From Candidatus Magasanikiibacteriota bacterium (lineage in GTDB: Bacteria > Patescibacteriota > Patescibacteriia > Magasanikbacterales > UBA922): a DNA stretch of 46,305 bases. Below the pieces are notes generated by a model, which was not told the origin of the DNA, did no database searches, and saw only the letters and a list, made by a program, of their open reading frames with translations. The DNA lies in NCBI GenBank assembly GCA_043825135.1, contig JBDRSF010000022.1, forward strand, positions 1-46,305, given 5' to 3'. The position numbers and the translations under genes were made by a program. This document shows positions 1 to 46,305 of this stretch, piece after piece; positions within the stretch are counted from its first letter, which is position 1; each line of letters begins with the position of its first letter.

Positions 1-285
1 GTATTTTCATTTTTAGAGTTTATCCAACACTCTCTAGCACAAGCCATAGCCAGTACTATTCTCGTTTTTTGGATAGCCCAGATTTCAACCGCCCGAAGCC
101 GTGACCGCGGACTGTTTCGTTTACTTTCCAAATATATTATACCACAAAAACAAAGCGCTCGCACCGGTCGTATTCTGAAAGTATCAGAACCGTACCGATG
201 CGAGCGAGCCTGCCTGACGGCAGGCGACCAAGTAGCCAAGTAACCCAAGTGTCCTCTAGTACCGAGGACCCAAGGGATCAAGTGC

Positions 286-747
286 CTACTTGCGACGAAG
301 GACGCGAACGAGGCCGTACCAGTCGAGGCCGAGCCAGTGCCAGCCCTGGACCCAGCCATCATCGTCCCAGTAGACGTAGGCGACGCGCACGGGAACGCCA
401 GGGAGACGCCAGTCCGTAAAGACAAAGACGATCTTGCCACGAAGAGCAACAGGAATCTCATCCTGATGCTTCAGGAGGTGTTCACCTTCCTCCTTGCCGA
501 GGTTGGCGTTCATCTCCTTGGCTCGGATAACCATCGTGTCGCCCTTCACGCTCTTCTCGTTTCCCTTGAGGAATCCGAGCAAATCGTAGGTGCGACCGCC
601 GATGGTCATCTCGATCGGGATCGCGTCTGCGACGAGCGTCTTCGCGAACTGACGAACCCTCTCCGTGTTGTCGGAGCTGACGAGTGCGTCAAACAGCTCG
701 TCGCCAATCTCCCTCTGCAGGTGTGCCGTTGAACGATGGGTATCCAT
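286..747 (-). CDS. Orphan GC-rich protein, 153 aa (cassette A); no family recognised
   Basis: Open minus-strand frame with AGGAG 8 nt before the ATG at 747 and its own TTGACA-17-TATAAT promoter upstream. GC-rich codons. Trp/Tyr-rich C-terminus ...YVYWDDDGWVQGWHWLGLDWYGLVRVLRRK. Overlapping plus-strand ORFs (198-419, 337-732) have no start signals. Confidence 0.6.
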   Translation of the reverse strand: MDTHRSTAHLQREIGDELFDALVSSDNTERVRQFAKTLVADAIPIEMTIGGRTYDLLGFLKGNEKSVKGDTMVIRAKEMNANLGKEEGEHLLKHQDEIPVALRGKIVFVFTDWRLPGVPVRVAYVYWDDDGWVQGWHWLGLDWYGLVRVLRRK

Positions 748-908
748 TTCCCTCTCTCCTTGGCTCCTCTATGTGAGAAACCTTACTCCTCGCCGAAGTT
801 GACAAAGAGGAAGAAACTGGGTTATCCCAGCCTTCTTTTTAACTTTTTTGCTAAAACAAGCCAAAAAGAAAGCTGAAAAAACTATCTTTTTAAAGGAAAT
901 AATGATGT

Positions 909-937
909 ATTATAGCACATTTTGGAGGTTTTGTCAA
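909..937 (-). promoter_or_regulatory. Consensus sigma70-type promoter for cassette A
   Basis: On the minus strand: TTGACA (932-937), 17-nt spacer, TATAAT (909-914). 35/38 identical to the copy at 2262-2299. Confidence 0.6.
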
Positions 938-943
938 CCCCTG

Positions 944-1370
944 CACCATTCTGAAGATATTTATTGATTTAACGACAGTTTAAGCCGCTAGGCGCCTCAC
1001 GGCTTGGATAGTGGTTTATCACTGGACGTTGCCAGAATGGTGTGGGGTCAATAGCACCCCCAAGATGGACTAACTCACGACTGAAAGGAGTGATTCTCGC
1101 AGGAGTGATGCACGACCAAAGGAGTGCGTCATCCGAGCGACGTTGCTTCTAATTGACCCACTCCCTGTGGGTCGTGGGTCACTCCTTGGTTTTAATACTC
1201 TTTATATCTATATTCCATTTTAATTTTTTTCGCTCATTTTGCCCCACTCTACGGCGAGCCATGACCCAACCGCATTCTGGGACGGCAGAATGGCGTGATT
1301 TTTCAAACGCCAACCGTAGCCAACGTTATTATGTAAAATCTAATTCTAATTTTAACACAAATTTATTTAA
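944..1370. ncRNA. Candidate structured RNA / unknown element between the two GC-rich cassettes (strand unresolved)
   Basis: 10-bp long-range pairing of CACCATTCTG (944-953) with CAGAATGGTG (1033-1042). Nested hairpins; three GGAGTG (1087, 1102, 1121) and two CACTCC (1159, 1180) on the same strand. GACCCAC (1155-1161) can pair with either of two tandem GTGGGTC (1167-1173, 1174-1180). Three-stem fold at 1249-1319. No convincing ORF. Confidence 0.3.
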
Positions 1371-1412
1371 AAAAGAAGAACCCTCGATCCGCGTGATGCG
1401 AACCGAGGATCC
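1369..1412 (-). terminator. Rho-independent terminator after cassette B ORF
   Basis: Minus strand: GGAUCCUCGGUUCGC / GCGGAUCGAGGGUUC form a 15-bp stem (4 G-U pairs) with loop AUCAC, followed by UUCUUUUUU. The wobble pairs would be C-A mismatches on the plus strand, so it is strand specific. Confidence 0.6.
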
Positions 1413-1469
1413 AAACGACCAGTGTCCGGACACCTGCTCGACGTGTGTCGAGCCAAGTGTCCAGGTGAC

Positions 1470-2090
1470 CTATGACCGCTTGCGGAGGACGAGCCACGCA
1501 CAGTCCGGATAGAACCTGTTGGAAACGCTGCACAAGTTCAGCTTGCGTTGCCTGTGGCCGTTCCAGTAGTGGCTGAAGATCGGCAGGCAAAGACCGCCGT
1601 CGGAGTCCTGCGCAGAAACTGGGACGACCAGCGGGCGGGCCAGTTGAGCGTCTAAATGGTTGGCGACGTACTCCATGGCACGTCTGACACCGCAGAAACG
1701 GATTTCGCCTTTCTTCACCATCTCTGCCAGACGACGAAGCTTTTCCTCGCCGGTGGCATTGTCCGAGAAAAAGTGCTCTTTGACTTCCCATTCAGACTCG
1801 TCTGGAGCAACCGGCTCCAACGGCCAACGGGCCTCGGTGAAGTCCGGGTTGAACCAATACTGCTGACAGGCGGTGAGGAGTTGTTGCCACGACTTTTGGA
1901 CGATAGTAGTTGCCTTGTTGGCGTACCGCATAATCGTGGTGGCCAACTCGCGCCGTAGTTCGGCGTTCGTGCCGATGAGAGCGATGTCTTCGTCCGAACC
2001 ACCCAGACCCAACACCTCGTCAATGAGAGCCTTGAAGATAACAAACATCTTCCCGAATGCCTTCAGAAACTCACTTTTCTTACGAGCCAT
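1470..2090 (-). CDS. Orphan GC-rich protein, 206 aa (cassette B); no family recognised
   Basis: GGAGG 6 nt before the ATG at 2090, with its own TTGACA-17-TATAAT promoter. C-terminus ...HYWNGHRQRKLNLCSVSNRFYPDCAWLVLRKRS resembles the cassette A C-terminus. Five overlapping alternative-frame ORFs are typical of GC-rich DNA and lack start signals. Confidence 0.6.
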   Translation of the reverse strand: MARKKSEFLKAFGKMFVIFKALIDEVLGLGGSDEDIALIGTNAELRRELATTIMRYANKATTIVQKSWQQLLTACQQYWFNPDFTEARWPLEPVAPDESEWEVKEHFFSDNATGEEKLRRLAEMVKKGEIRFCGVRRAMEYVANHLDAQLARPLVVPVSAQDSDGGLCLPIFSHYWNGHRQRKLNLCSVSNRFYPDCAWLVLRKRS

Positions 2091-2270
2091 GATACACCTC
2101 CCAAATTTGCGACCTACTCTTTACTAGTACACCATGTACCAGTCTAAAGCTTGTCACACCAAAACTGGGAACAATTCCCAGCCACATTTTTATCTTTTTG
2201 TCTAAAATAAGACAAAAAACTGGCTGGAAAAAAGTTATAAATAGTTAATATTATAAGGAACTAATGATAT

Positions 2271-2299
2271 ATTATAGCATATTTTGGGGGTTTTGTCAA
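2271..2299 (-). promoter_or_regulatory. Consensus sigma70-type promoter for cassette B
   Basis: On the minus strand: TTGACA (2294-2299), 17-nt spacer, TATAAT (2271-2276). Duplicate of 909-937. Confidence 0.6.
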
Positions 2300-3381
2300 T
2301 AGCATGTACAGGATGAGTACATAGGTAACACTTTTGAAAAATTAAGTGGTGTTTCATAACCGAGTGTTTGGTGTGGTCTATGGAAGTTGTATTCTATCAA
2401 CCATTCTGTCAGTTTTTGATTGAATATTTCAGGATCGGGATGAAAATTACCAAGATTTAGAAATTCTGTCTGTAGGGTCTGGTTAAATCTTTCATTGTCA
2501 GGATTATCTTTCGGTGTTCTCACTCTTGAGTAGTATTGCTCAATTAAAAGTTTTTTGCAAGCTTCTTTAAAATATTTTTCAAATTCAGAACCATTATCAT
2601 GACCTACTTTGGGTATTTTTCCATCCAACAAGTAATGTAGGCGATAAAGAAAATCTTTACTGTTAGTCGTGCTTTTGGTTTTGTACATTCTGGCAAATGC
2701 TACTTTACCATATTTGTCTATAGCAGTGAATATGTAGCGTTTTAGTCCGCAAGAATAGATAACTATAGTATCCAAACAAATGATGTAACCGGCTTTTTTC
2801 TTGTACCACGGCAATTTGTTTAAATTCAATTCAGTGATTCGTTTCTTTTTCCCCGTCCCTCGCCTTTTTTTGCTGATTTTAGCTGTTTTTGTGGGGTTTA
2901 AGTACAATTTATGCTTAGTAATAACTCTTTGTATTTTCCATGAAGATATTTGTTCACCATATTTTCCTTTGTAGAGTTTAGCCAGTTTAATCTTGCCATA
3001 TTGCATGTATTTCTTTCTTAGTAGTATTACCCTTTCTTCTTGGGCAGGTGTAATCTCGGGCTGTCTGACATGCTGAGGAGCTTTGGATTTATCCTCTAAT
3101 TTGCGCAGGCTGTAAATATTATCTTCGTCAAAGAGATTAAACCACTTGTAAAAGGTTTTTCGGGATATTCCGAAATGTCGAGAGGTCTGCTGTACAGAAT
3201 TACCCTGATAATTGTAGATTATCCATTCCAGTCGCATTCTGGCTGTTTTAGATAGTTTTAGTATCTTGGCTACTCGACGCCAACGTTCATGTTTATCCAA
3301 AAGTTTAGTGCCCCTGACAAAGTCTGTGCCCCAATTTTTCGTAAACAGCCATTTGTAGGTATTTGTATCAAGACTAGCCAT
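2296..3381 (-). CDS. DDE (rve/integrase-core) transposase, IS481/IS3-like
   Basis: N-terminal HTH-like region, then integrase core ...HDNGSEFEKYF...RVRTPKDNPDNERFNQTLQTEF...YNFHRPHQTL. The stop codon lies just outside the left IR. Confidence 0.85.
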   Translation of the reverse strand: MASLDTNTYKWLFTKNWGTDFVRGTKLLDKHERWRRVAKILKLSKTARMRLEWIIYNYQGNSVQQTSRHFGISRKTFYKWFNLFDEDNIYSLRKLEDKSKAPQHVRQPEITPAQEERVILLRKKYMQYGKIKLAKLYKGKYGEQISSWKIQRVITKHKLYLNPTKTAKISKKRRGTGKKKRITELNLNKLPWYKKKAGYIICLDTIVIYSCGLKRYIFTAIDKYGKVAFARMYKTKSTTNSKDFLYRLHYLLDGKIPKVGHDNGSEFEKYFKEACKKLLIEQYYSRVRTPKDNPDNERFNQTLQTEFLNLGNFHPDPEIFNQKLTEWLIEYNFHRPHQTLGYETPLNFSKVLPMYSSCTCY

Positions 3382-3480
3382 AATTTATGAGATTACAAGG
3401 TTGTTATTTAACATCCAATTTTAGCAAAACCTGCGGTTTTGGGCAAATCAGAGTGTTACCTATGTATCTCATCTTGTGCA
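2305..3480 (-). mobile_element. IS481-like insertion sequence (about 1.18 kb)
   Basis: Terminal inverted repeats TGTACAGGATGAGTACATAGGTAACACT (2305-) and, reverse-complemented from 3452-3480, TGCACAAGATGAGATACATAGGTAACACT. They enclose a single DDE/rve transposase ORF. Confidence 0.75.
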
Positions 3481-6246: not shown

Positions 6247-7194
6247 CTATAGTTCCAAATTAATCACCTCGCCAAATGCATCTTCATATCTTTTCTTAAA
6301 TTCATCAATGCTAAACTTATGTTCCTGTGTGCCATAATTTTCAATTGCATAAGTAGAGGCAACAGCACCCATTTGTCCGCAAGTCTGATAATCACAACCC
6401 TGTAAATAAGCGGTAAAAAAACCAGCTCGATAAGCATCACCAGCACCGGTTGGATCATCAACTGATAGTGGCTGACATATTCCGACTTCAAAAATTTGAT
6501 CCTTAGTAGTTATTACAGACCCCCTATCTCCCAATGTTGTAATCAAAACTTCCACATGATTCAACATCTCACTCATATCCCAACCAGTTTTTTCCTGTAT
6601 TAATTTCATTTCATAATCATTACCAATCAAAAATTTAGCCTGACCAATCACAGCCATCAATTCCTGCGGACTAAAAGCTGTTATCTGCTGACCTGGATCA
6701 AAACAAAATGGAATTTTTAAATCATAGCACTCTTTGGCATGCTTTATCATGGCATTTTTGTCTGTTGGTGAGATTAAAGTAAATTTTATATCTTCTTTCA
6801 CACTGCCAATACTCAAATTAGATGCTTCAGACAGAGCACCATTATAAAAAGCTGTAATTTGATTATCATCCTTATCAGTTGTTATGTGAGCAGACGAAGT
6901 CAATCTTTCCTTTGAAACTGGTATATGATCAGTATTTATTCCTACTTTTTTTAGATAAGTAATATAATCTTCTCCGTCTTTTCCTAATGGAGCAAAAATA
7001 ATCGGATTGCCTCCCAACAATTTCATTGTATAGCCAATATTACCAGCCACACCACCATAATTTTTATTAAGCTGATCCACCACAAAACAGACATTCAAAA
7101 TATGAATCTGATCTGGCAAAATATGGTTCTTAAAACTATCTGGAAAATCCATGATATAGTCGTAAGCGAGTGAACCGGAGATTAAGATAGACAT
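6247..7194 (-). CDS. PfkB-family carbohydrate/nucleoside kinase (possibly adenosine kinase-like)
   Basis: 315 aa with the ribokinase-like fold signature DPTGAGDAYRAGF near the C-terminus. Its position two genes from ahcY suggests adenosine salvage (inference). Confidence 0.8.
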   Translation of the reverse strand: MSILISGSLAYDYIMDFPDSFKNHILPDQIHILNVCFVVDQLNKNYGGVAGNIGYTMKLLGGNPIIFAPLGKDGEDYITYLKKVGINTDHIPVSKERLTSSAHITTDKDDNQITAFYNGALSEASNLSIGSVKEDIKFTLISPTDKNAMIKHAKECYDLKIPFCFDPGQQITAFSPQELMAVIGQAKFLIGNDYEMKLIQEKTGWDMSEMLNHVEVLITTLGDRGSVITTKDQIFEVGICQPLSVDDPTGAGDAYRAGFFTAYLQGCDYQTCGQMGAVASTYAIENYGTQEHKFSIDEFKKRYEDAFGEVINLEL

Positions 7195-9902: not shown

Positions 9903-11447
9903 CTAAAACAAATCAGATAAACTTTGCCAAAAACCTTTCTTTTTCTCTCTATGTTCAGGTGGTTGAATTTCAATATTTATAGTATTTGTTGCTTTTCTCG
10001 GTTTATTTTCATTTTTTTCTACACCAACCATCATAGAATATCCTGGGAATTTTTCTTCATCCCAATCATATTGAGTTTTCCATTTTCCATTTTTCCAAGT
10101 CCATGTATTAAAATTGCTATCAACAAAAGACCAAGAAGTGTCAATTTTAGGGTCAACCTTGTCAGGTATACTTTCAAATAATTTTAGTATTTTTTCAGAA
10201 TTAAAAATAGGACAGATACTTAATTGCTCAAATTGTCGATCAATTTCTTTTTTAATTTTTTCTTTATCAAAAAACCATTCGCCTTTTTGAGTATCAATAT
10301 ATCCATATTCACACCAAGAATTCTGTTCAAATTCATTAAAGTAAAAATTTTTACATCCAAATTTATTTAATTTCCCGTCCCATTCATTTGTACGGCAATA
10401 ATCTAAAGATTTACCACCTGTTATCTTTTCTTTATAACACCATAAACTATTCCGTAGTTTTGTTGAATGTATAGGTTTTCCGTCTAATTCTATTTTTTGA
10501 GTTTTCCAACCACTTGTATAATCAAGTATGATGTACAAATTCTCAATATCCTCAATATCAAAAAATGCGGAATAAATTATATCATTTTTTTCTTCAATTT
10601 TTTCAAATGTATTTTGCTTTTCAATAAAACTTATTGCTTCATCCCTTTTCTTTGAAGTAGATTTACCAAATGAGATTTTAATTCTCTCTTTTATTCTCTT
10701 GTCTTCTTTTTTGTCATTTTTATTAACTGAAAATATTTCTACATTGATACCGAGTTCATCTGATAAAAAAGAGTGCCATTCTGTTTGTTTTGTTGAAATT
10801 TTATCTTTTTCACTTTTAACCTCTGCAAAAAAATATTTATCTTTAGAATATACGAATAAGTCAGGCAGTCCAGATCTGTTATAACTAAAATTTTTGAATA
10901 ATCTTTCTATTATTTTTAATAGTCTATCCTTTTCTACCACATCAACCGCTATACATAATTGCTCTATTGAGAATTTATCCCAGTTTTCAATAGGTCGACA
11001 CCTTTTTTTAAAGTTAATTTTATGCGAATCAATCAATACCTGTCTTATATCAATATGTTCTAATTCTTTTAGCCTATTATGAAAAAGAGATTTTCTTTTT
11101 TCGTAAAATTCCTCTTTGAAAAAATCAAGTGGCATCCCATTAACTTCACAATTAAATTTATAGATAGTTTCAAATTTTTCATTATCTGTACCTATTTCAT
11201 AGGTTGAATTCCCGTCAGAATATATACAATATCCTTTTATTTTGGCGAATATAATATCCCAAAATAAAAGGGCATATATTTTCCACCAATAATCATTTTC
11301 CGACCAAATAGAAGAAAAACCTTCTTTTTCATAAACCTTTCGGGCAAATTCTTCAACAAAAAAATAGTCATTATCTAAAAGATATTTTATCTTTTTGCCT
11401 GTCGTGGCATTTTGCTTTTCGGCTTGTATGTTTTTTTGAGTAATCAT
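9903..11447 (-). CDS. FAN1-like VRR-NUC nuclease with unknown 270-aa C-terminal extension
   Basis: PD-(D/E)xK core GLPDLFVY...FFAEVKSEKDKISTKQTEWH and upstream LLFWDIIF, as I recall them from FAN1. The C-terminal half is Cys/Trp-rich and unrecognised. Confidence 0.7.
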   Translation of the reverse strand: MITQKNIQAEKQNATTGKKIKYLLDNDYFFVEEFARKVYEKEGFSSIWSENDYWWKIYALLFWDIIFAKIKGYCIYSDGNSTYEIGTDNEKFETIYKFNCEVNGMPLDFFKEEFYEKRKSLFHNRLKELEHIDIRQVLIDSHKINFKKRCRPIENWDKFSIEQLCIAVDVVEKDRLLKIIERLFKNFSYNRSGLPDLFVYSKDKYFFAEVKSEKDKISTKQTEWHSFLSDELGINVEIFSVNKNDKKEDKRIKERIKISFGKSTSKKRDEAISFIEKQNTFEKIEEKNDIIYSAFFDIEDIENLYIILDYTSGWKTQKIELDGKPIHSTKLRNSLWCYKEKITGGKSLDYCRTNEWDGKLNKFGCKNFYFNEFEQNSWCEYGYIDTQKGEWFFDKEKIKKEIDRQFEQLSICPIFNSEKILKLFESIPDKVDPKIDTSWSFVDSNFNTWTWKNGKWKTQYDWDEEKFPGYSMMVGVEKNENKPRKATNTINIEIQPPEHREKKKGFWQSLSDLF

Positions 11448-12200: not shown

Positions 12201-12497
12201 ATTTTTTGTATTTAAGTTAATTAATTAAATAATACCATTTTACCACTGTATTTTCAATAAAAAACACAAAAGGCTCCCCGTACAGTGGCGACCCCTTGCG
12301 AGATCCAATAACCTTTCGATTGTTGACTAAACGAATAATACCAAAGACGGAAGAACCATCTCTTTATTCGTTTAGTTTTTCAACCATGCCCAACAAAATA
12401 AATTGGTTTAGGTCTTGATTTGTTGGCTTTACCTTACCAAAATATCAGTAAAAAATCAAGGAAACATCAACAAAACCCACCCTGTGTATAAGTAATA

Positions 12498-12526
12498 TTG
12501 ACAAATTATATCCAATTGGGTATAAT
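12498..12526 (+). promoter_or_regulatory. Consensus promoter upstream of the XRE operon
   Basis: TTGACA (12498-12503), 17-nt spacer, TATAAT (12521-12526). Leaves a leader of about 225 nt before the ATG at 12756. Confidence 0.6.
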
Positions 12527-13826: not shown

Positions 13827-13917
13827 TTCTACCCGGCTTTAGCCGGGGTGAGGCGACTTTAGTCGCCGTAACCCCCGGAAGCTAAAGCTTCTTGACCTCG
13901 GCTAAAGCCGAGTAGAA
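13827..13917. repeat. 91-bp non-autonomous REP/MITE element (TTCTAC...GTAGAA, four CTTTAG/CTAAAG-loop hairpins)
   Basis: TTCTACCCGGCTTTAGCCGGGG...CTCGGCTAAAGCCGAGTAGAA. Same architecture as 25377-25467 and as the ends of the RAYT element at 22830-23453. Confidence 0.75.
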
Positions 13918-13970
13918 AACCTATATATAAAAAGACCTCCCTTTCGGGAGGACTCCACAATTTTCTATTT

Positions 13971-16535: not shown

Positions 16536-16539
16536 AATG

Positions 16540-16612
16540 TGCGCCCAGATGGACTTGAACCATCGACCCCAACGTTATAAGCGTTGTGCTCTAACCACTG
16601 AGCTATGGGCGC
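16540..16612 (-). tRNA. tRNA-Ile with genomically encoded UAU anticodon
   Basis: Manual fold: acceptor GCGCCCA/TGGGCGC, D stem GCTC/GAGC, anticodon stem CAACG/CGTTG with loop CTTATAA, T stem GATGG/CCATC, T-loop TTCAAGT. Confidence 0.85.
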
Positions 16613-22819: not shown

Positions 22820-22829
22820 AATTTCTCTG

Positions 22830-23453
22830 TTCTACCCAGCTTTAGCTGGGGTGACGAGGCTTGAGCCTCGCCATTTCTCCTATATCAAGTGAATAATCCT
22901 CCTTATTTTCATCTAATTGTAGTACATTATAAATCAATAATCTCATTTTCTCTTCGCCATATTTTCCAACAAAATGTTCATAACTACAATACCTATTAAA
23001 ACGCAAATCTGAAATCTTATTCACTTCTTTATGTTTTAGTAAATTTCCACACACATAACCAGCAATTCCCCAATACATGTTCATGTCTTTTATATACACA
23101 GTCTTAGCATTTCCCCACATTTCCTTATACTTATAAGAAAATCTATCTCTATAATTCTTACTAACCCCACCATGAATAAACTGTTTTATTTTTGGTATCA
23201 ACTGATCGTTGTCGCAACAAACTATTAGATGATAATGATTTATCTGAATACTGTAAGCTGAAACTGTCACACCATATTTTTCTTTTAGCTTTGCAATTCT
23301 GTCATAGACAATATCTTTTTGTTGACTGGTTTTAAAATAAGGATAGTGCAAAAAGGTTGATCCAGTTAAAAAATATATTCCAGATTGATAGTAAGACATA
23401 TCTATGAATTAGCGGAGCTAAAGCTCCGTCACCCCAGCTAAAGCTGGGTAAAA
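22830..23453 (-). mobile_element. RAYT gene bracketed by inverted REP hairpin pairs (REPtron-like unit)
   Basis: Left end TTCTACCCAGCTTTAGCTGGGGTGACGAGGCTTGAGCCTCGCC (22830-22872). Right end reverse-complemented (23412-23453) is TTTTACCCAGCTTTAGCTGGGGTGACGGAGCTTTAGCTCCGC. Confidence 0.7.
22842..23399 (-). CDS. IS200/RAYT-like HUH (Y1) transposase
   Basis: HUH motif NHYHLIV and a Tyr motif GYVCGNLLKHK. The 3' end of the ORF runs into the left REP hairpins. Confidence 0.75.
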   Translation of the reverse strand: MSYYQSGIYFLTGSTFLHYPYFKTSQQKDIVYDRIAKLKEKYGVTVSAYSIQINHYHLIVCCDNDQLIPKIKQFIHGGVSKNYRDRFSYKYKEMWGNAKTVYIKDMNMYWGIAGYVCGNLLKHKEVNKISDLRFNRYCSYEHFVGKYGEEKMRLLIYNVLQLDENKEDYSLDIGEMARLKPRHPS

Positions 23454-23465
23454 TACAAATATCTG

Positions 23466-25289: not shown

Positions 25290-25376
25290 ATTTTTTTCGT
25301 TGTCATTCCGAGCGTAGCCGAGGAATCCCTTTCCCCTGCTTCAAACTCTGGATTAAAAATTAGATTATTTGTTTTA

Positions 25377-25467
25377 TTCTACCCGGCTTTAGCCGGGGTT
25401 GGGAAGCTTTAGCTTCCGTCAATTACACAGACTAAAGTCTAGTGACCGCCACTAAAGTGGCGTAGAA
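25377..25467. repeat. 91-bp non-autonomous REP/MITE element (second copy)
   Basis: TTCTACCCGGCTTTAGCCGGGG...GCCACTAAAGTGGCGTAGAA. Overlaps the last 5 codons and stop of the gamma-subunit ORF. Confidence 0.75.
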
Positions 25468-25958
25468 AGATTCCAAACTCGCCTATTCTCCTCCCAACCC
25501 CTCTTCTTCGCCAACTTTTCTTCAAGCGCCTGATAAATTTCTTGTTTTTTAATAATTCCTTTACCTTCTAGCATACCAGAAATCTTACTTAAGAAAAAAA
25601 TATTTCTACTATATGGCTCTACATTATTTTCTTTGAAAAAATCCACATAGTCTTTTATCTCAATAATTTCAACACCGTCTTGCTGATAATCTACAGTCCT
25701 CTCTCTGGCTTGATCAGACATGATAAGTAGAAAATCTGGTTTGGAAAATTTTGGATAAAAAATCTCCTTATCAGAAATTTTTATATAAGCCATAGATACT
25801 CCGCCTTTTTGTTCTAAGCCATAATTTGGAATGTGACTTACTTCTAGACCATTCTTAAAAGCTGTATTGCAAATTAAATAAGACAAAGTCTGAATCCCTT
25901 GTCCTCCATCGCCACTCAATATTATTTTTAATGTCATAATGTTATTATCATCTATCAT
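25452..25958 (-). CDS. 2-oxoacid:ferredoxin oxidoreductase, gamma subunit
   Basis: ILSGDGGQGIQT motif and operon context. The true start may be the Met at 25937. Confidence 0.8.
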   Translation of the reverse strand: MIDDNNIMTLKIILSGDGGQGIQTLSYLICNTAFKNGLEVSHIPNYGLEQKGGVSMAYIKISDKEIFYPKFSKPDFLLIMSDQARERTVDYQQDGVEIIEIKDYVDFFKENNVEPYSRNIFFLSKISGMLEGKGIIKKQEIYQALEEKLAKKRGWEENRRVWNLSTPL

Positions 25959-26015
25959 TTATCATCTATCATGCTTGTTTAAAAAAATAAATGATAGATG
26001 ATAAATGATAATTTA

Positions 26016-26684: not shown

Positions 26685-26788
26685 ATGCCTTTATTCAAAA
26701 TTTATATTTACTAGAAAAAGTTATCATTTATCATCTATCATTTATTTTCCTAATTAATTATGATAGGTGATAAATGATATATGATATA

Positions 26789-33206: not shown

Positions 33207-34442
33207 TTATATTATCTTTTCCACTCTCGATGCCTCCAACCTCTCAACCACCGCCAACTCTCCCACCAACGGCTTAACATAATCAACAAACATCTGCGTC
33301 ACACCATTGTTTCCATCAATAAATTCGTCTGGCATTGGTTTGGTACCATTGGCAACCTGAGATAATTCAACCAATTCATAACTTATATTATAGTCATCAG
33401 TGCGTTTCATAACGACCGACCCATCCACATCACCACTCATGGCAAATTTAACTGCCTGCACACCAACTTCACGGGCTTCTTTTGAATCAACCTCGCTGAC
33501 AAAACCCGGAAAAGATCTTTGTAAAAAACCAAACACATCAGCACGCACCCTTTTTATATTCGTTTTTGTTTTAATTAAATCAACCAATAAATCTCCAAGT
33601 GCTCCTGTACCAGCCAAACGCACATTACCATGTGGGTCATATTCTTTTTCTTTGCACAACCGCGCCGCCATAGCTTCACCAGACCCATCATGAATACCCT
33701 CTGATACTGCCACAACACAATATCCATATTTATCATAAACACTTTGTACATCCTTGATAAACTGCTCCTCGTTAAAAGCTCTTTCTGGTAAATAAATTAA
33801 ATGGGGACCGTCTTCTGAACGCCTTTTTGCCAAAACTGACGAAGCGGTCAACCAACCAGCATGCCGACCCATAACTACACCAACATAAACACCACCAAAA
33901 GCCACAATATCCAAACTAACACCAATAAACGCACTGGCAACAAACTTCGCGGCCGAGCCAAAACCAGGGCAGTGATCAGTTACTAATAAATCGTTATCAA
34001 TTGTTTTGGGCACATGGATGACATGCAATTCATAATTTTCTGCCTGCGCCGCTGTATTAATAATTCCACAATTTGATGCCCCATCATTACCACCAATAAA
34101 AAACAGATATTTTATGTCATGTTTTTTTAAAATATCAAACATTTTTTTGCAATATTCATTATCTGCTTTATCGCGGGTGGAACCGAGCGCTGAGCTTGGT
34201 GTCTTAGCAATCAATTCTAATTTATCTATTGGATAATCTGTCAAATCAACAAAATCTTGTTTTATCACCCCGGCAATACCATGCTGAGCCCCATAAATTT
34301 TGGAAATTTGTGAATATTTTCTAGCCTCAAGCACAACTCCAACCAATGTTTGATTTATTACAGCTGTTGGTCCCCCGGCCTGAAGTACTAATGCGTTTGA
34401 TTTTGTAATATTATTCATATTTAAATTTTTACCATTTATCAT
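33207..34442 (-). CDS. 6-phosphofructokinase (ATP- or PPi-dependent; phosphoryl donor not resolved)
   Basis: AGGPTAVIN, IGGNDGASN and PKTIDNDL motifs. Confidence 0.9.
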   Translation of the reverse strand: MINGKNLNMNNITKSNALVLQAGGPTAVINQTLVGVVLEARKYSQISKIYGAQHGIAGVIKQDFVDLTDYPIDKLELIAKTPSSALGSTRDKADNEYCKKMFDILKKHDIKYLFFIGGNDGASNCGIINTAAQAENYELHVIHVPKTIDNDLLVTDHCPGFGSAAKFVASAFIGVSLDIVAFGGVYVGVVMGRHAGWLTASSVLAKRRSEDGPHLIYLPERAFNEEQFIKDVQSVYDKYGYCVVAVSEGIHDGSGEAMAARLCKEKEYDPHGNVRLAGTGALGDLLVDLIKTKTNIKRVRADVFGFLQRSFPGFVSEVDSKEAREVGVQAVKFAMSGDVDGSVVMKRTDDYNISYELVELSQVANGTKPMPDEFIDGNNGVTQMFVDYVKPLVGELAVVERLEASRVEKII

Positions 34443-34503
34443 TTATCATCTATCATTAATTATTTAATAAATGATAAACGATACATAATTATATACACTA
34501 TAA

Positions 34504-39444: not shown

Positions 39445-39696
39445 ACTCTACCAGATTGCCTAATTACAATTACAGTCAATCTGGCTATTATTTTGTAACG
39501 ATTTGTACGGCAAATCGTTTTTGTTATTTTGGCAATATAAAAAATAGTGAAATGATTTTAAACGAAAATGGAAAAATTATTTACCAAGAATTATTAAAAA
39601 CACCACAAATCAGAAAAAATGTAATATTGGATGAATTTATTATTATGCCAAATCATGTACATACTGTAATTATCATTGGTGAACAGACCCCTTGTA
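39411..39696 (+). pseudogene. Truncated RAYT/IS200-like HUH transposase (N-terminal half only)
   Basis: YFVTICTANRFCYFG and the HUH motif MPNHVHTVIII are present. Past 39697 the frame runs through REP hairpins and into the 5S gene, and no Tyr motif is present. Confidence 0.6.
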
Positions 39697-39871
39697 GAGA
39701 CGCATTCAATGCGTCTCCGGTTCGCGATAACACACCCGTAAAGACGCATTCAATGCGTCTCCGGATTACAACAAAACCAACATTATCGCACATATTATAT
39801 ATCACGTTATTGATATGTATGGTGTTTACAGAATGTATGGTGATATTAAGGAGACGCATTCAATGCGTCTC
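39697..39871. repeat. Three copies of the REP-like hairpin GAGACGCAT-TCA-ATGCGTCTC
   Basis: Copies at 39697-39717, 39742-39762 and 39850-39871. Each has 9-bp perfect arms and a 3-nt loop. Confidence 0.65.
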
Positions 39872-39886
39872 TACAGACAGACAGAC

Positions 39887-39913
39887 AATAAAACAAGGTT
39901 TTAACCTTGTTTT
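39887..39913 (-). terminator. Hairpin plus U tract downstream of the 5S rRNA
   Basis: Minus strand: AAAACAAGG, loop TTAAAA, CCTTGTTTT, then ATTG. Confidence 0.5.
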
Positions 39914-39927
39914 ATTTATCAAAAAAA

Positions 39928-40049
39928 GACCTTATCTTGGCGGCAACCTACTTTTGCCTTGCGACTATCATCGGCGCTAGTGGGCTTAACTTCTGTGTTC
40001 GGGATGGGAACAGGTGTACCCCCACTGCAAGAACCACCAAGATAAGGTC
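39928..40049 (-). rRNA. rrf: 5S rRNA
   Basis: The reverse complement contains CCTGTTCCCATCCCGAACACAGAAGTTAAGCCCACTAGCGCCGATGATAGT. Terminal helix GACCTTATCTTGG / CCAAGATAAGGTC. Confidence 0.85.
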
Positions 40050-46077: not shown

Positions 46078-46305
46078 AGTTTGTATATTTTACCTGAAGA
46101 TGGAAAATATTTCAAGAATATGTTCTCGCCGATATCAAATGCGACACATATTCCCCTCTCCTTGTAGGAGAGGGGTTAGTCAGTTATACTACAATCAATG
46201 ATATAATACATGGCAAAAGCTGTACACTCATCATCACCCCTTGGGAATTAAACCCCCTAAGAAAGTAAATGATGTATAGCTTTGGCCATCACTTGTTTTA
46301 ATAAA

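Follow-up and report, generated by a model that had tools for sequence, protein, structure and literature searches.

Two tandem cassettes at the end of a Patescibacteria contig as probable target halves of diversity-generating retroelements

The first 2,299 nt of a 46,305-nt contig from a Candidatus Magasanikiibacteriota bacterium (JBDRSF010000022.1; we call the whole contig the window) very probably consist of two tandem target cassettes of diversity-generating retroelements (DGRs) of the Patescibacteria type. Each cassette carries one small gene on the minus strand, ORF1 (286–747, 153 aa) and ORF2 (1470–2090, 206 aa), and both open reading frames (ORFs) exist as an earlier sequence-only reading of this DNA had drawn them. 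That reading called them orphan genes, but each sits in a sizeable Patescibacteria family, with 82 homologues for ORF1 and 34 for ORF2, and pairs of template repeat (TR) and variable repeat (VR) in relatives identify both, by sequence comparison, as families of DGR variable-protein (target) genes, family 1 and family 2. The system is of a known kind, represented here by an incomplete locus at a contig edge.

Template and variable repeats in relatives of both genes

We compared about 70 related loci in all, including 51 genome loci for ORF1-type targets, and observed that in relatives the last ~125 nt of the target gene, the VR, pairs with a TR downstream. In a Magasanikbacteria locus (L002), a 122-nt copy of the 3′ end of the ORF1 homologue recurs downstream of the gene, next to genes for bAvd and RVT_1, and comparison of the VR (6337–6458) with this TR (6839–6960) places 20 of the 21 mismatches on TR adenines. 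An ORF1-type TR is present at seven targets in six of the 51 genome loci, where mismatches at TR adenines number 20/21, 15/16, 15/15, 19/22, 17/17, 18/18 and 12/13; the values 17/17 and 18/18 belong to two tandem targets in one locus (L033) that have one common TR. The corresponding counts for family 2 are 24/25 in L063 and 20/21 in L066, both with Avd on the opposite strand and the reverse transcriptase (RT) gene next. RT and Avd genes adjoin homologues in L002, L021, L022, L033, L042, L063 and L066. TR/VR mismatches that fall nearly all on TR adenines, beside Avd and RT, constitute the defining signature of a DGR.

The corresponding repeats can be located in the window. VR1, the variable repeat of ORF1 (289–411, minus), matches the TRs of L021, L033, L042, L002 and L030 at 73–78%, and against the L021 TR 21 of its 31 mismatches fall on TR adenines, which occupy 32 of the 124 positions (26%). 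The A-containing TR codons (AAC, TAC, CAC, GAG, CAG and similar) align with hypervariable columns of the ORF1 family alignment (A3), in which a conserved body leads into a C-terminal scaffold of ~45 residues where fixed positions alternate with hypervariable ones, closing in RVLRRK. The ORF2 family alignment (A4) has a conserved core and a hypervariable C-terminus, with a ~45-residue scaffold ending in GWLVLRKR, and in both alignments the hypervariable columns are confined to the last ~45 residues. VR2, the predicted variable repeat of ORF2 (1478–1616, minus), is placed from its homology with the VRs in L063 and L066. The end of VR2, ...TGGCTCGTCCTCCGCAAGC, resembles an initiation of mutagenic homing (IMH) sequence, and 19 nt at this 3′ end are the same as in the L066 VR, with A where the TRs have C. 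The VR 3′ ends ...CGTCGCAAGT and ...CTCCGCAAGC are conserved, and an A/C difference from the TR is found in several loci. The sequence-only reading had rightly singled out a Trp/Tyr-rich C-terminal module as a special feature shared by the two proteins; since the C-termini are homologous to TR-paired repeats in relatives, this module is in fact the VR.

The two proteins have no detectable homology with each other (BLASTP E = 0.67; hhalign probability 0.85%), and neither has a significant match in Pfam, NCBIfam, PADLOC or PHROGs, the best profile E-values (Pfam 0.023, PADLOC 0.029, NCBIfam 0.05) all falling short of the cut-offs. The ORF1 homologues share 51–71% identity, and a profile of this family searched against 1.84 billion cluster representatives retrieved 1,246 clusters at E ≤ 0.001, of which 666 reach E ≤ 1e-10; fused tandem repeats of the domain are among the clusters. 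Such fusions comprise four copies in P0118 (517 aa) and two in P0002 (267 aa), and tandem separate genes also occur (L033, L037, L040, L044). All named sources of both families are Patescibacteria: Magasanikbacteria, Uhrbacteria, Falkowbacteria, Buchananbacteria and Paceibacter. Many of the loci L011–L061 come from third-party-annotation records of metagenome-assembled genomes titled ‘uncultured Gammaproteobacteria bacterium’, a title that seems to be a placeholder or a wrong label and not the true taxonomy. L015, the nearest relative of the ORF1 cassette, runs colinear with window positions 1–812 at 72.7% nucleotide identity. In L001 (5600–6741) a target cassette lies between the genes for the small and large subunits of a NiFe-hydrogenase, and in L009 (5798–7800) a cassette with decayed Avd and RT lies between pheS and pheT; such positions inside unrelated operons point to insertion or persistence at unrelated sites.

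The last ~40–45 codons of each small variable protein form its VR, and in complete elements of these families a TR with a promoter and structured leader of its own lies ~350–430 nt past the stop codon. The TR transcript would be reverse-transcribed by the adjacent RT together with Avd, with adenines misread, and the cDNA would replace the VR under the guidance of its conserved, IMH-like 3′ end and of the GC-rich inverted repeat that follows. A fixed set of codons would thereby be randomised on a probably lectin-like scaffold. AlphaFold2 models of ORF1 and ORF2 (mean predicted local distance difference test scores of 85.8 and 86.6) both begin with a helical part and end in an alpha/beta domain, with the VR on the last strands. 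Foldseek searches of the PDB with these models gave non-significant matches, the best of which include C-type lectin-like domains (CTLDs) in both cases: 8oks_B (E = 0.02, TM score 0.54 on the target) and several CTLDs for ORF1, and the mannose-receptor carbohydrate-recognition domain 4 (CRD-4), LOX-1 and mincle for ORF2; the A3 and A4 profiles found no match among PDB sequences. A minimal lectin-like scaffold for both proteins is plausible from the models and fits published Patescibacteria targets (PMC8144416), and the proteins would presumably bind ligands through the VR surface.

Promoters, leaders and 3′ structures of the cassettes

Each ORF is preceded by a perfect TTGACA-17-TATAAT promoter on the minus strand, as the sequence-only reading had noticed: at 900–937 for the ORF1 cassette and at 2262–2299 for the ORF2 cassette (−35 box 2294–2299, TG-extended −10 box 2271–2276). 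The two blocks are identical at 35 of 38 positions, as stated there, and the likeness runs on for ~130 nt at 77–78%. The proposed duplicated expression cassette survives in part, in that promoter, structured leader, GC-rich ORF and a structured 3′ end do form a modular arrangement, but the local duplication does not, because the same promoter and leader stand ahead of homologues in at least 35 other genomes and are a feature of the family. The family layout is TTGACAAAA, a spacer, TGnTATAAT and GTTCTTT, found ahead of homologues in many genomes; the L011 promoter, for example, matches the first window copy at 32 of 38 positions by eye. Promoters of this type also precede unrelated genes in Patescibacteria loci and are therefore an ordinary strong promoter of these organisms. 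The window has three occurrences of the perfect motif where 0.07 would be expected; the third one (12498–12526, plus) lies beside a LOOT RNA (RF03000, 75 bits; 12290–12414, minus). On its other side the ORF2 cassette adjoins an IS481/IS3-like DDE transposase ORF (2296–3381, minus; rve, rve_3 and HTH domains), whose insertion sequence (IS) has perfect 15-nt inverted repeats at 2318–2332 and 3452–3466 and is separated by 19 nt from the −35 box ahead of ORF2.

The 5′ leader of ORF1 (745–875, minus) is strongly structured (fold z = −7.2) and forms four helices: P1 (827–875), a short hairpin (814–833), P2 (786–810) and P3 (762–782), followed by the Shine-Dalgarno sequence and start codon (745–761). 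P1 is a long stem, CAGCUUUCUUU...AAAGAAGGCUG, with an apex of 19–112 nt that often contains GC-rich palindromic insertions, and it forms in 25 of 32 leaders; P2 is CCUCUUUGCC/GGCGAGGAG, and P3 is GCUUUCUC/GAGGAGGC or GCCCUUU/AAGGGC. A covariance model of the 3′ part of the leader (R1) scores 72 bits at ORF1 and also detects 34 other loci, and all 35 copies end at the start codon of an ORF1-type gene. In the R1 alignment 97.4% of cells are paired and compensatory changes appear in 8 of 18 pairs, values unmatched by shuffle or slide controls, with the caveat that the alignment is model-fitted. P1 is also seen ahead of some ORF2-type genes (the window copy, L005 and L066). In the minimum free energy (MFE) fold of the ORF2 leader (2165–2227, minus; z = −5.7), a long P1 hairpin (2178–2227) is joined by a short hairpin, CTGGGAAttgTTCCCAG (2165–2181), and a CCAGC...GGCTGG stem recurs in L005 and L066. 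The conserved 5′ end of the leader pairs with the Shine-Dalgarno and start-codon region in the MFE fold, which suggests translational control. The leader matches no Rfam family in a search to E = 1, and nothing in window positions 1–2400 reaches an Rfam gathering threshold. A weak R1 match at 46133–46212 was rejected as a second leader copy, being a simple hairpin with no target gene.

The 3′ regions of the cassettes are structured as well. Past the ORF1 stop codon, an array of CTTGG/CTCGG (CYTSG) motifs at 7–9 nt spacing (228–285, minus) surrounds the inverted repeat GTCCTCggtactaGAGGAC (251–269), and the motif fills the 60–90 nt past the stop codon in both families. Its density is 2.47 per 100 nt against 0.61 in shuffles, 7–8 nt spacings dominate, and it is strand-specific, the reverse complement occurring at 0.18 per 100 nt. 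The 3′ strings GGACACTTGG and TTGGRTCCTCGGT, correctly reported earlier as shared by the two cassettes, are copies of this family-wide motif. As CYTSG lies next to the IMH-like end and to the inverted repeat, a role in target recognition is a reasonable guess. ORF2 has a GC-rich inverted repeat directly past VR2 (1428–1462, minus, seen in the fold) and an intrinsic terminator (1369–1412, minus) made of a 15-pair stem followed by TTCTTTTTT; the intrinsic terminator of ORF1 (146–206, minus) has 23-nt arms (156–178 and 184–206) and then a T-run. At both VRs the IMH-like 3′ end and the GC-rich inverted repeat are preserved, as they should be in a competent target. The promoter, the leader, the 3′ repeats and the RNA region ahead of the TR described below are conserved cassette parts, not products of local duplication.

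Two small, adjacent, function-unassigned genes beside an IS element could also suggest a toxin–antitoxin, effector–immunity or defence pair unrelated to DGRs, roles that the sequence-only reading had kept in play. We found nothing in their support, and such a pair is extremely improbable: the database searches gave no significant match in PADLOC, Pfam, NCBIfam or PHROGs, each gene has its own promoter and terminator, the ORF2–ORF1 pairing of the window is seen in none of the ~70 other loci, in which the two families never co-occur, and both families are DGR targets in relatives. Integron-type cassettes were rejected too, as every unit comes with a promoter and a terminator of its own and the DGR context explains the 3′ structures.

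Codon composition of the target genes

The cassettes stand out in composition, with 52.5% G+C at positions 150–2100 against 35.9% at 2301–46305; the hand counts given earlier (33/60 at 481–540, 36/60 at 601–660 and 21/60 at 10021–10080) are exact. The excess lies mainly at third codon positions of the two genes, where the G+C fraction (GC3) is 0.75 in ORF1 and 0.70 in ORF2, compared with 0.27 in the neighbouring ahcY, and it spans the entire target ORF, beyond the VR. GC3 is 0.65–0.93 in every homologue examined, the rest of each locus having 32–52% G+C, and Avd and RT genes in the same cassettes, at 0.38–0.67, stay well under the target genes; this codon bias, rich in GC3 and poor in third-position adenine, is confined to the target genes of the cassettes. 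Pooled four-fold sites consist of C at 0.55, G at 0.24, T at 0.14 and A at 0.08. Identity between homologues at these sites is 48%, against 38% expected from composition, so that synonymous sites are near saturation; as the bias persists there, it must be old and maintained over long divergence, and it is not the remnant of a recent import from a high-GC donor.

This bears directly on the foreign, high-GC origin proposed by the sequence-only reading, in which the genes came recently from a high-GC organism or its mobile elements and were wired to host promoters. That proposal draws on the ~20-point jump in G+C, the difference between GC3 of 0.70–0.75 and 0.27 next door, the neighbouring IS transposase and the occurrence of cassettes at unrelated sites in different genomes. 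We nevertheless consider it very unlikely, since every homologue with a named source comes from Patescibacteria, homologues are GC-rich whatever the G+C of the host, the high G+C is not shared by Avd and RT in the same cassettes, the bias persists at nearly saturated four-fold sites, and promoter and leader travel with the gene. An assembly chimera, with GC-rich reads of another organism joined to an AT-rich contig, would fit the location at a contig end and the sharp changes in composition. It is scarcely credible, because AT-rich promoter blocks alternate twice with GC-rich blocks, L015 is colinear with positions 1–812, and the AT-rich promoter is joined to the GC-rich leader and gene in 35 independent assemblies. 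The GC-rich region is real, neither chimera nor foreign DNA.

Biased gene conversion, a target transcript that avoids adenine, and selection acting on decoding or on mRNA structure are candidate causes of the GC3 bias. In the literature open to search we found no paper that joins DGR targets with GC3.

Completeness of the two elements and relation to known DGRs

The 3′ side of ORF1 runs, on the minus strand, from the CYTSG array (285–228) through the terminator (206–146) into a promoter with a TG-extended −10 box, TGTGGTATAAT (146–136), and then GGAAAGTAAACGAAACAG (129–112) and onward. The promoter and the 5′ domain of a TR-carrying RNA (TR-RNA) together occupy 1–146 and are cut by the contig end. 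Window positions 1–215 align, column by column, with the stretch of terminator, promoter and pre-TR sequence in L002, L021, L030 and L033, and the window ends at ...AAAAATGAAAATAC, ~100–125 nt before the point at which the TR of these loci begins. The ORF1 cassette may still possess a TR, Avd and RT just past the contig end. Among the seven loci with the pre-TR motif and enough downstream sequence, four have a TR and three, including L015, do not, which puts completeness of the ORF1 cassette at roughly even odds. We also considered that the contig might start inside a second IS copy, as positions 2–26 match 2960–2984 at 22 of 25 positions; this was ruled out by the colinearity of L015 with 1–812.

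A comparable region follows ORF2, with promoter-like TGTGTTAAAAT (1349–1359) and a truncated 5′ domain of the TR-carrying DGR RNA (1216–1359, minus) that has no TR after it. Positions 1216–1420 align with the VR-to-TR spacer of L063, L066, L009 and L005 as far as ~1216 and then diverge. The place expected for the TR, Avd and RT of ORF2 is taken by a GC-rich, strongly folded segment of ~275 nt (940–1215, minus; fold z = −4.4), directly after which the ORF1 promoter begins. We found no homologue of 940–1220 by blastn or tblastx in any fetched locus and no AAC-rich TR-like character in it. Since the pre-TR region breaks off into unrelated sequence, the local TR, Avd and RT appear to have been lost, and we infer that the ORF2 cassette is decayed. 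Rfam searches at E up to 1 returned chance hairpin matches and two sub-threshold matches to RT-7 (RF03028), nothing else. The RT-7 matches (29–65 and 1218–1281, both minus) lie inside the two pre-TR RNA regions and score 19.5 and 16.1 bits against a gathering threshold of 116.8; RT-7 was not detected in the intact relatives L042, L063 and L066.

Several observations weigh against the reading of the locus as two DGR target cassettes. The contig contains no TR by adenine-wildcard scan, repeat search or blastn, and no RT or Avd by tblastn with those of L002 (nothing below E = 0.69), so that DGR activity on ORF1 and ORF2 here is unsupported; no TR stands where the ORF2 cassette should have one. 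In comparison with the distant L063 TR, 10 of 34 VR2 mismatches fall on TR adenines, with no adenine enrichment, and the C-type-lectin-like structural matches are weak (E = 0.02–1, TM scores 0.3–0.54). Of the 44 ORF1-type targets followed by sufficient sequence, about 37 lack a nearby TR or RT, and many family members may be frozen.

Both genes of the window could thus be frozen former DGR targets, now ordinary binding proteins of fixed sequence with no working DGR here. This is a real possibility, to which we give somewhat less than an even chance. It agrees with the lack of a TR, RT or Avd in 46 kb, with the visible absence of the ORF2 TR, and with the closest relative, L015, where the pre-TR RNA is kept (6462–6900) and then runs into a terminator with no TR, Avd or RT, as in a decapitated DGR. 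Most family members are lone genes, decayed RT fragments occur in L009, L027 and L029, and L005, L007 and L009 have no TR or a mere 27-nt remnant. Speaking for retained competence are the position of the contig end, ~100–125 nt ahead of the expected ORF1 TR, the intact IMH-like ends and inverted repeats at both VRs, and the intact ORFs; the window is also only part of the genome.

DGRs are common in bacteria of the candidate phyla radiation (CPR), with small targets in which no domain is recognised (PMC8144416, PMC5758913); DGR clade 2 is restricted to Patescibacteria and has targets without recognisable domains (Roux et al. 2021, PMC8144416), and the CPR DGRs (‘CPR set’) carry the unclassified VR classes UVR1-6 (Wu et al. 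2018, PMC5758913). The window shares with these systems the host group, cell-encoded location, small targets with no recognised domain and a C-terminal VR, and the families to which its genes belong share Avd and RT in complete relatives, adenine-specific TR/VR differences and multiple or tandem targets. Unlike complete Patescibacteria/CPR DGRs, it holds the target halves of two elements only. The prototype DGR of Bordetella phage BPP-1 (mtd-avd-TR-brt) likewise has the VR at the target 3′ end, adenine-specific mutagenesis and an IMH-like VR end followed by a GC-rich inverted repeat (PMC3240598, PMC5758913). It differs in order, the relatives having the target, a structured spacer of ~350–430 nt with a promoter, the TR, an opposite-strand Avd and then RT, and also in that the window element is chromosomal rather than phage-borne and its targets, of 153–206 aa, lack the Mtd architecture. 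As in variable proteins that adopt a C-type lectin fold (Mtd, Treponema TvpA, Nanoarchaeota AvpA and Thermus TaqVP; PMC5006420, PMC6328139), the VR is the C-terminal part of a compact alpha/beta domain, and C-type lectin-like domains are, weakly, among the best Foldseek matches of both models; unlike those proteins, ORF1 and ORF2 have no sequence or profile similarity to any solved structure. The Rfam motifs RT-1 to RT-19, RNAs found beside bacterial RT genes (PMC5737381), resemble the pre-TR regions as conserved structured RNAs at an RT-linked element, but with 16–20 bits against the RT-7 gathering threshold these regions provide a lead, not membership.

Elsewhere in the window, multi-hairpin repeats of GCTTTAGC/GCTAAAGC-type palindromes (13827–13918, 22821–22877, 23406–23462 and 25372–25468) look like a family of intergenic repeats resembling repetitive extragenic palindromic (REP) elements. 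AT-rich ‘TATCATTTATCATCTATCAT’ inverted repeats lie at 25946–26014, 26718–26786 and 34424–34494; two 69-nt arms of this type, separated by 703 nt and 87% complementary, might indicate a small mobile element. A GAGACGCATTCAATGCGTCTC hairpin occurs three times at 39694–39887, directly downstream of the 5S rRNA gene (39935–40041, minus). ARAGORN calls a tRNA-Ile with anticodon TAT (UAU) at 16539–16612, the same position as an Rfam tRNA match.

The DGR target identification is the known part of the locus, and what stays of most interest are three features of the whole family, namely the GC3 bias specific to target genes, the covarying 5′ leader and the CYTSG array, none of which we found described in the searchable literature. 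We think it unlikely, though worth stating, that the bias, the covarying four-helix leader and the array together form an undescribed layer of Patescibacteria DGR biology. Such a layer might take the form of RT- or recombination-linked biased conversion beyond the VR, of whole-transcript selection against adenines, or of a riboregulator that gates expression of a hypervariable protein.

Two Patescibacteria families of “hypothetical” proteins, one of them with more than 1,200 clusters, can now be annotated as DGR variable proteins, and GC-rich islands in CPR genomes that are otherwise AT-rich are not necessarily signs of foreign DNA or of a chimera. The ~70 loci form a comparative set for how often a target outlives its RT, for a conserved pre-TR RNA domain with its promoter, and for the leader and codon bias of the target. 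If these features are related to DGR function, they would offer cheap, testable handles on how the elements are expressed, targeted and maintained in organisms that are hard to grow.

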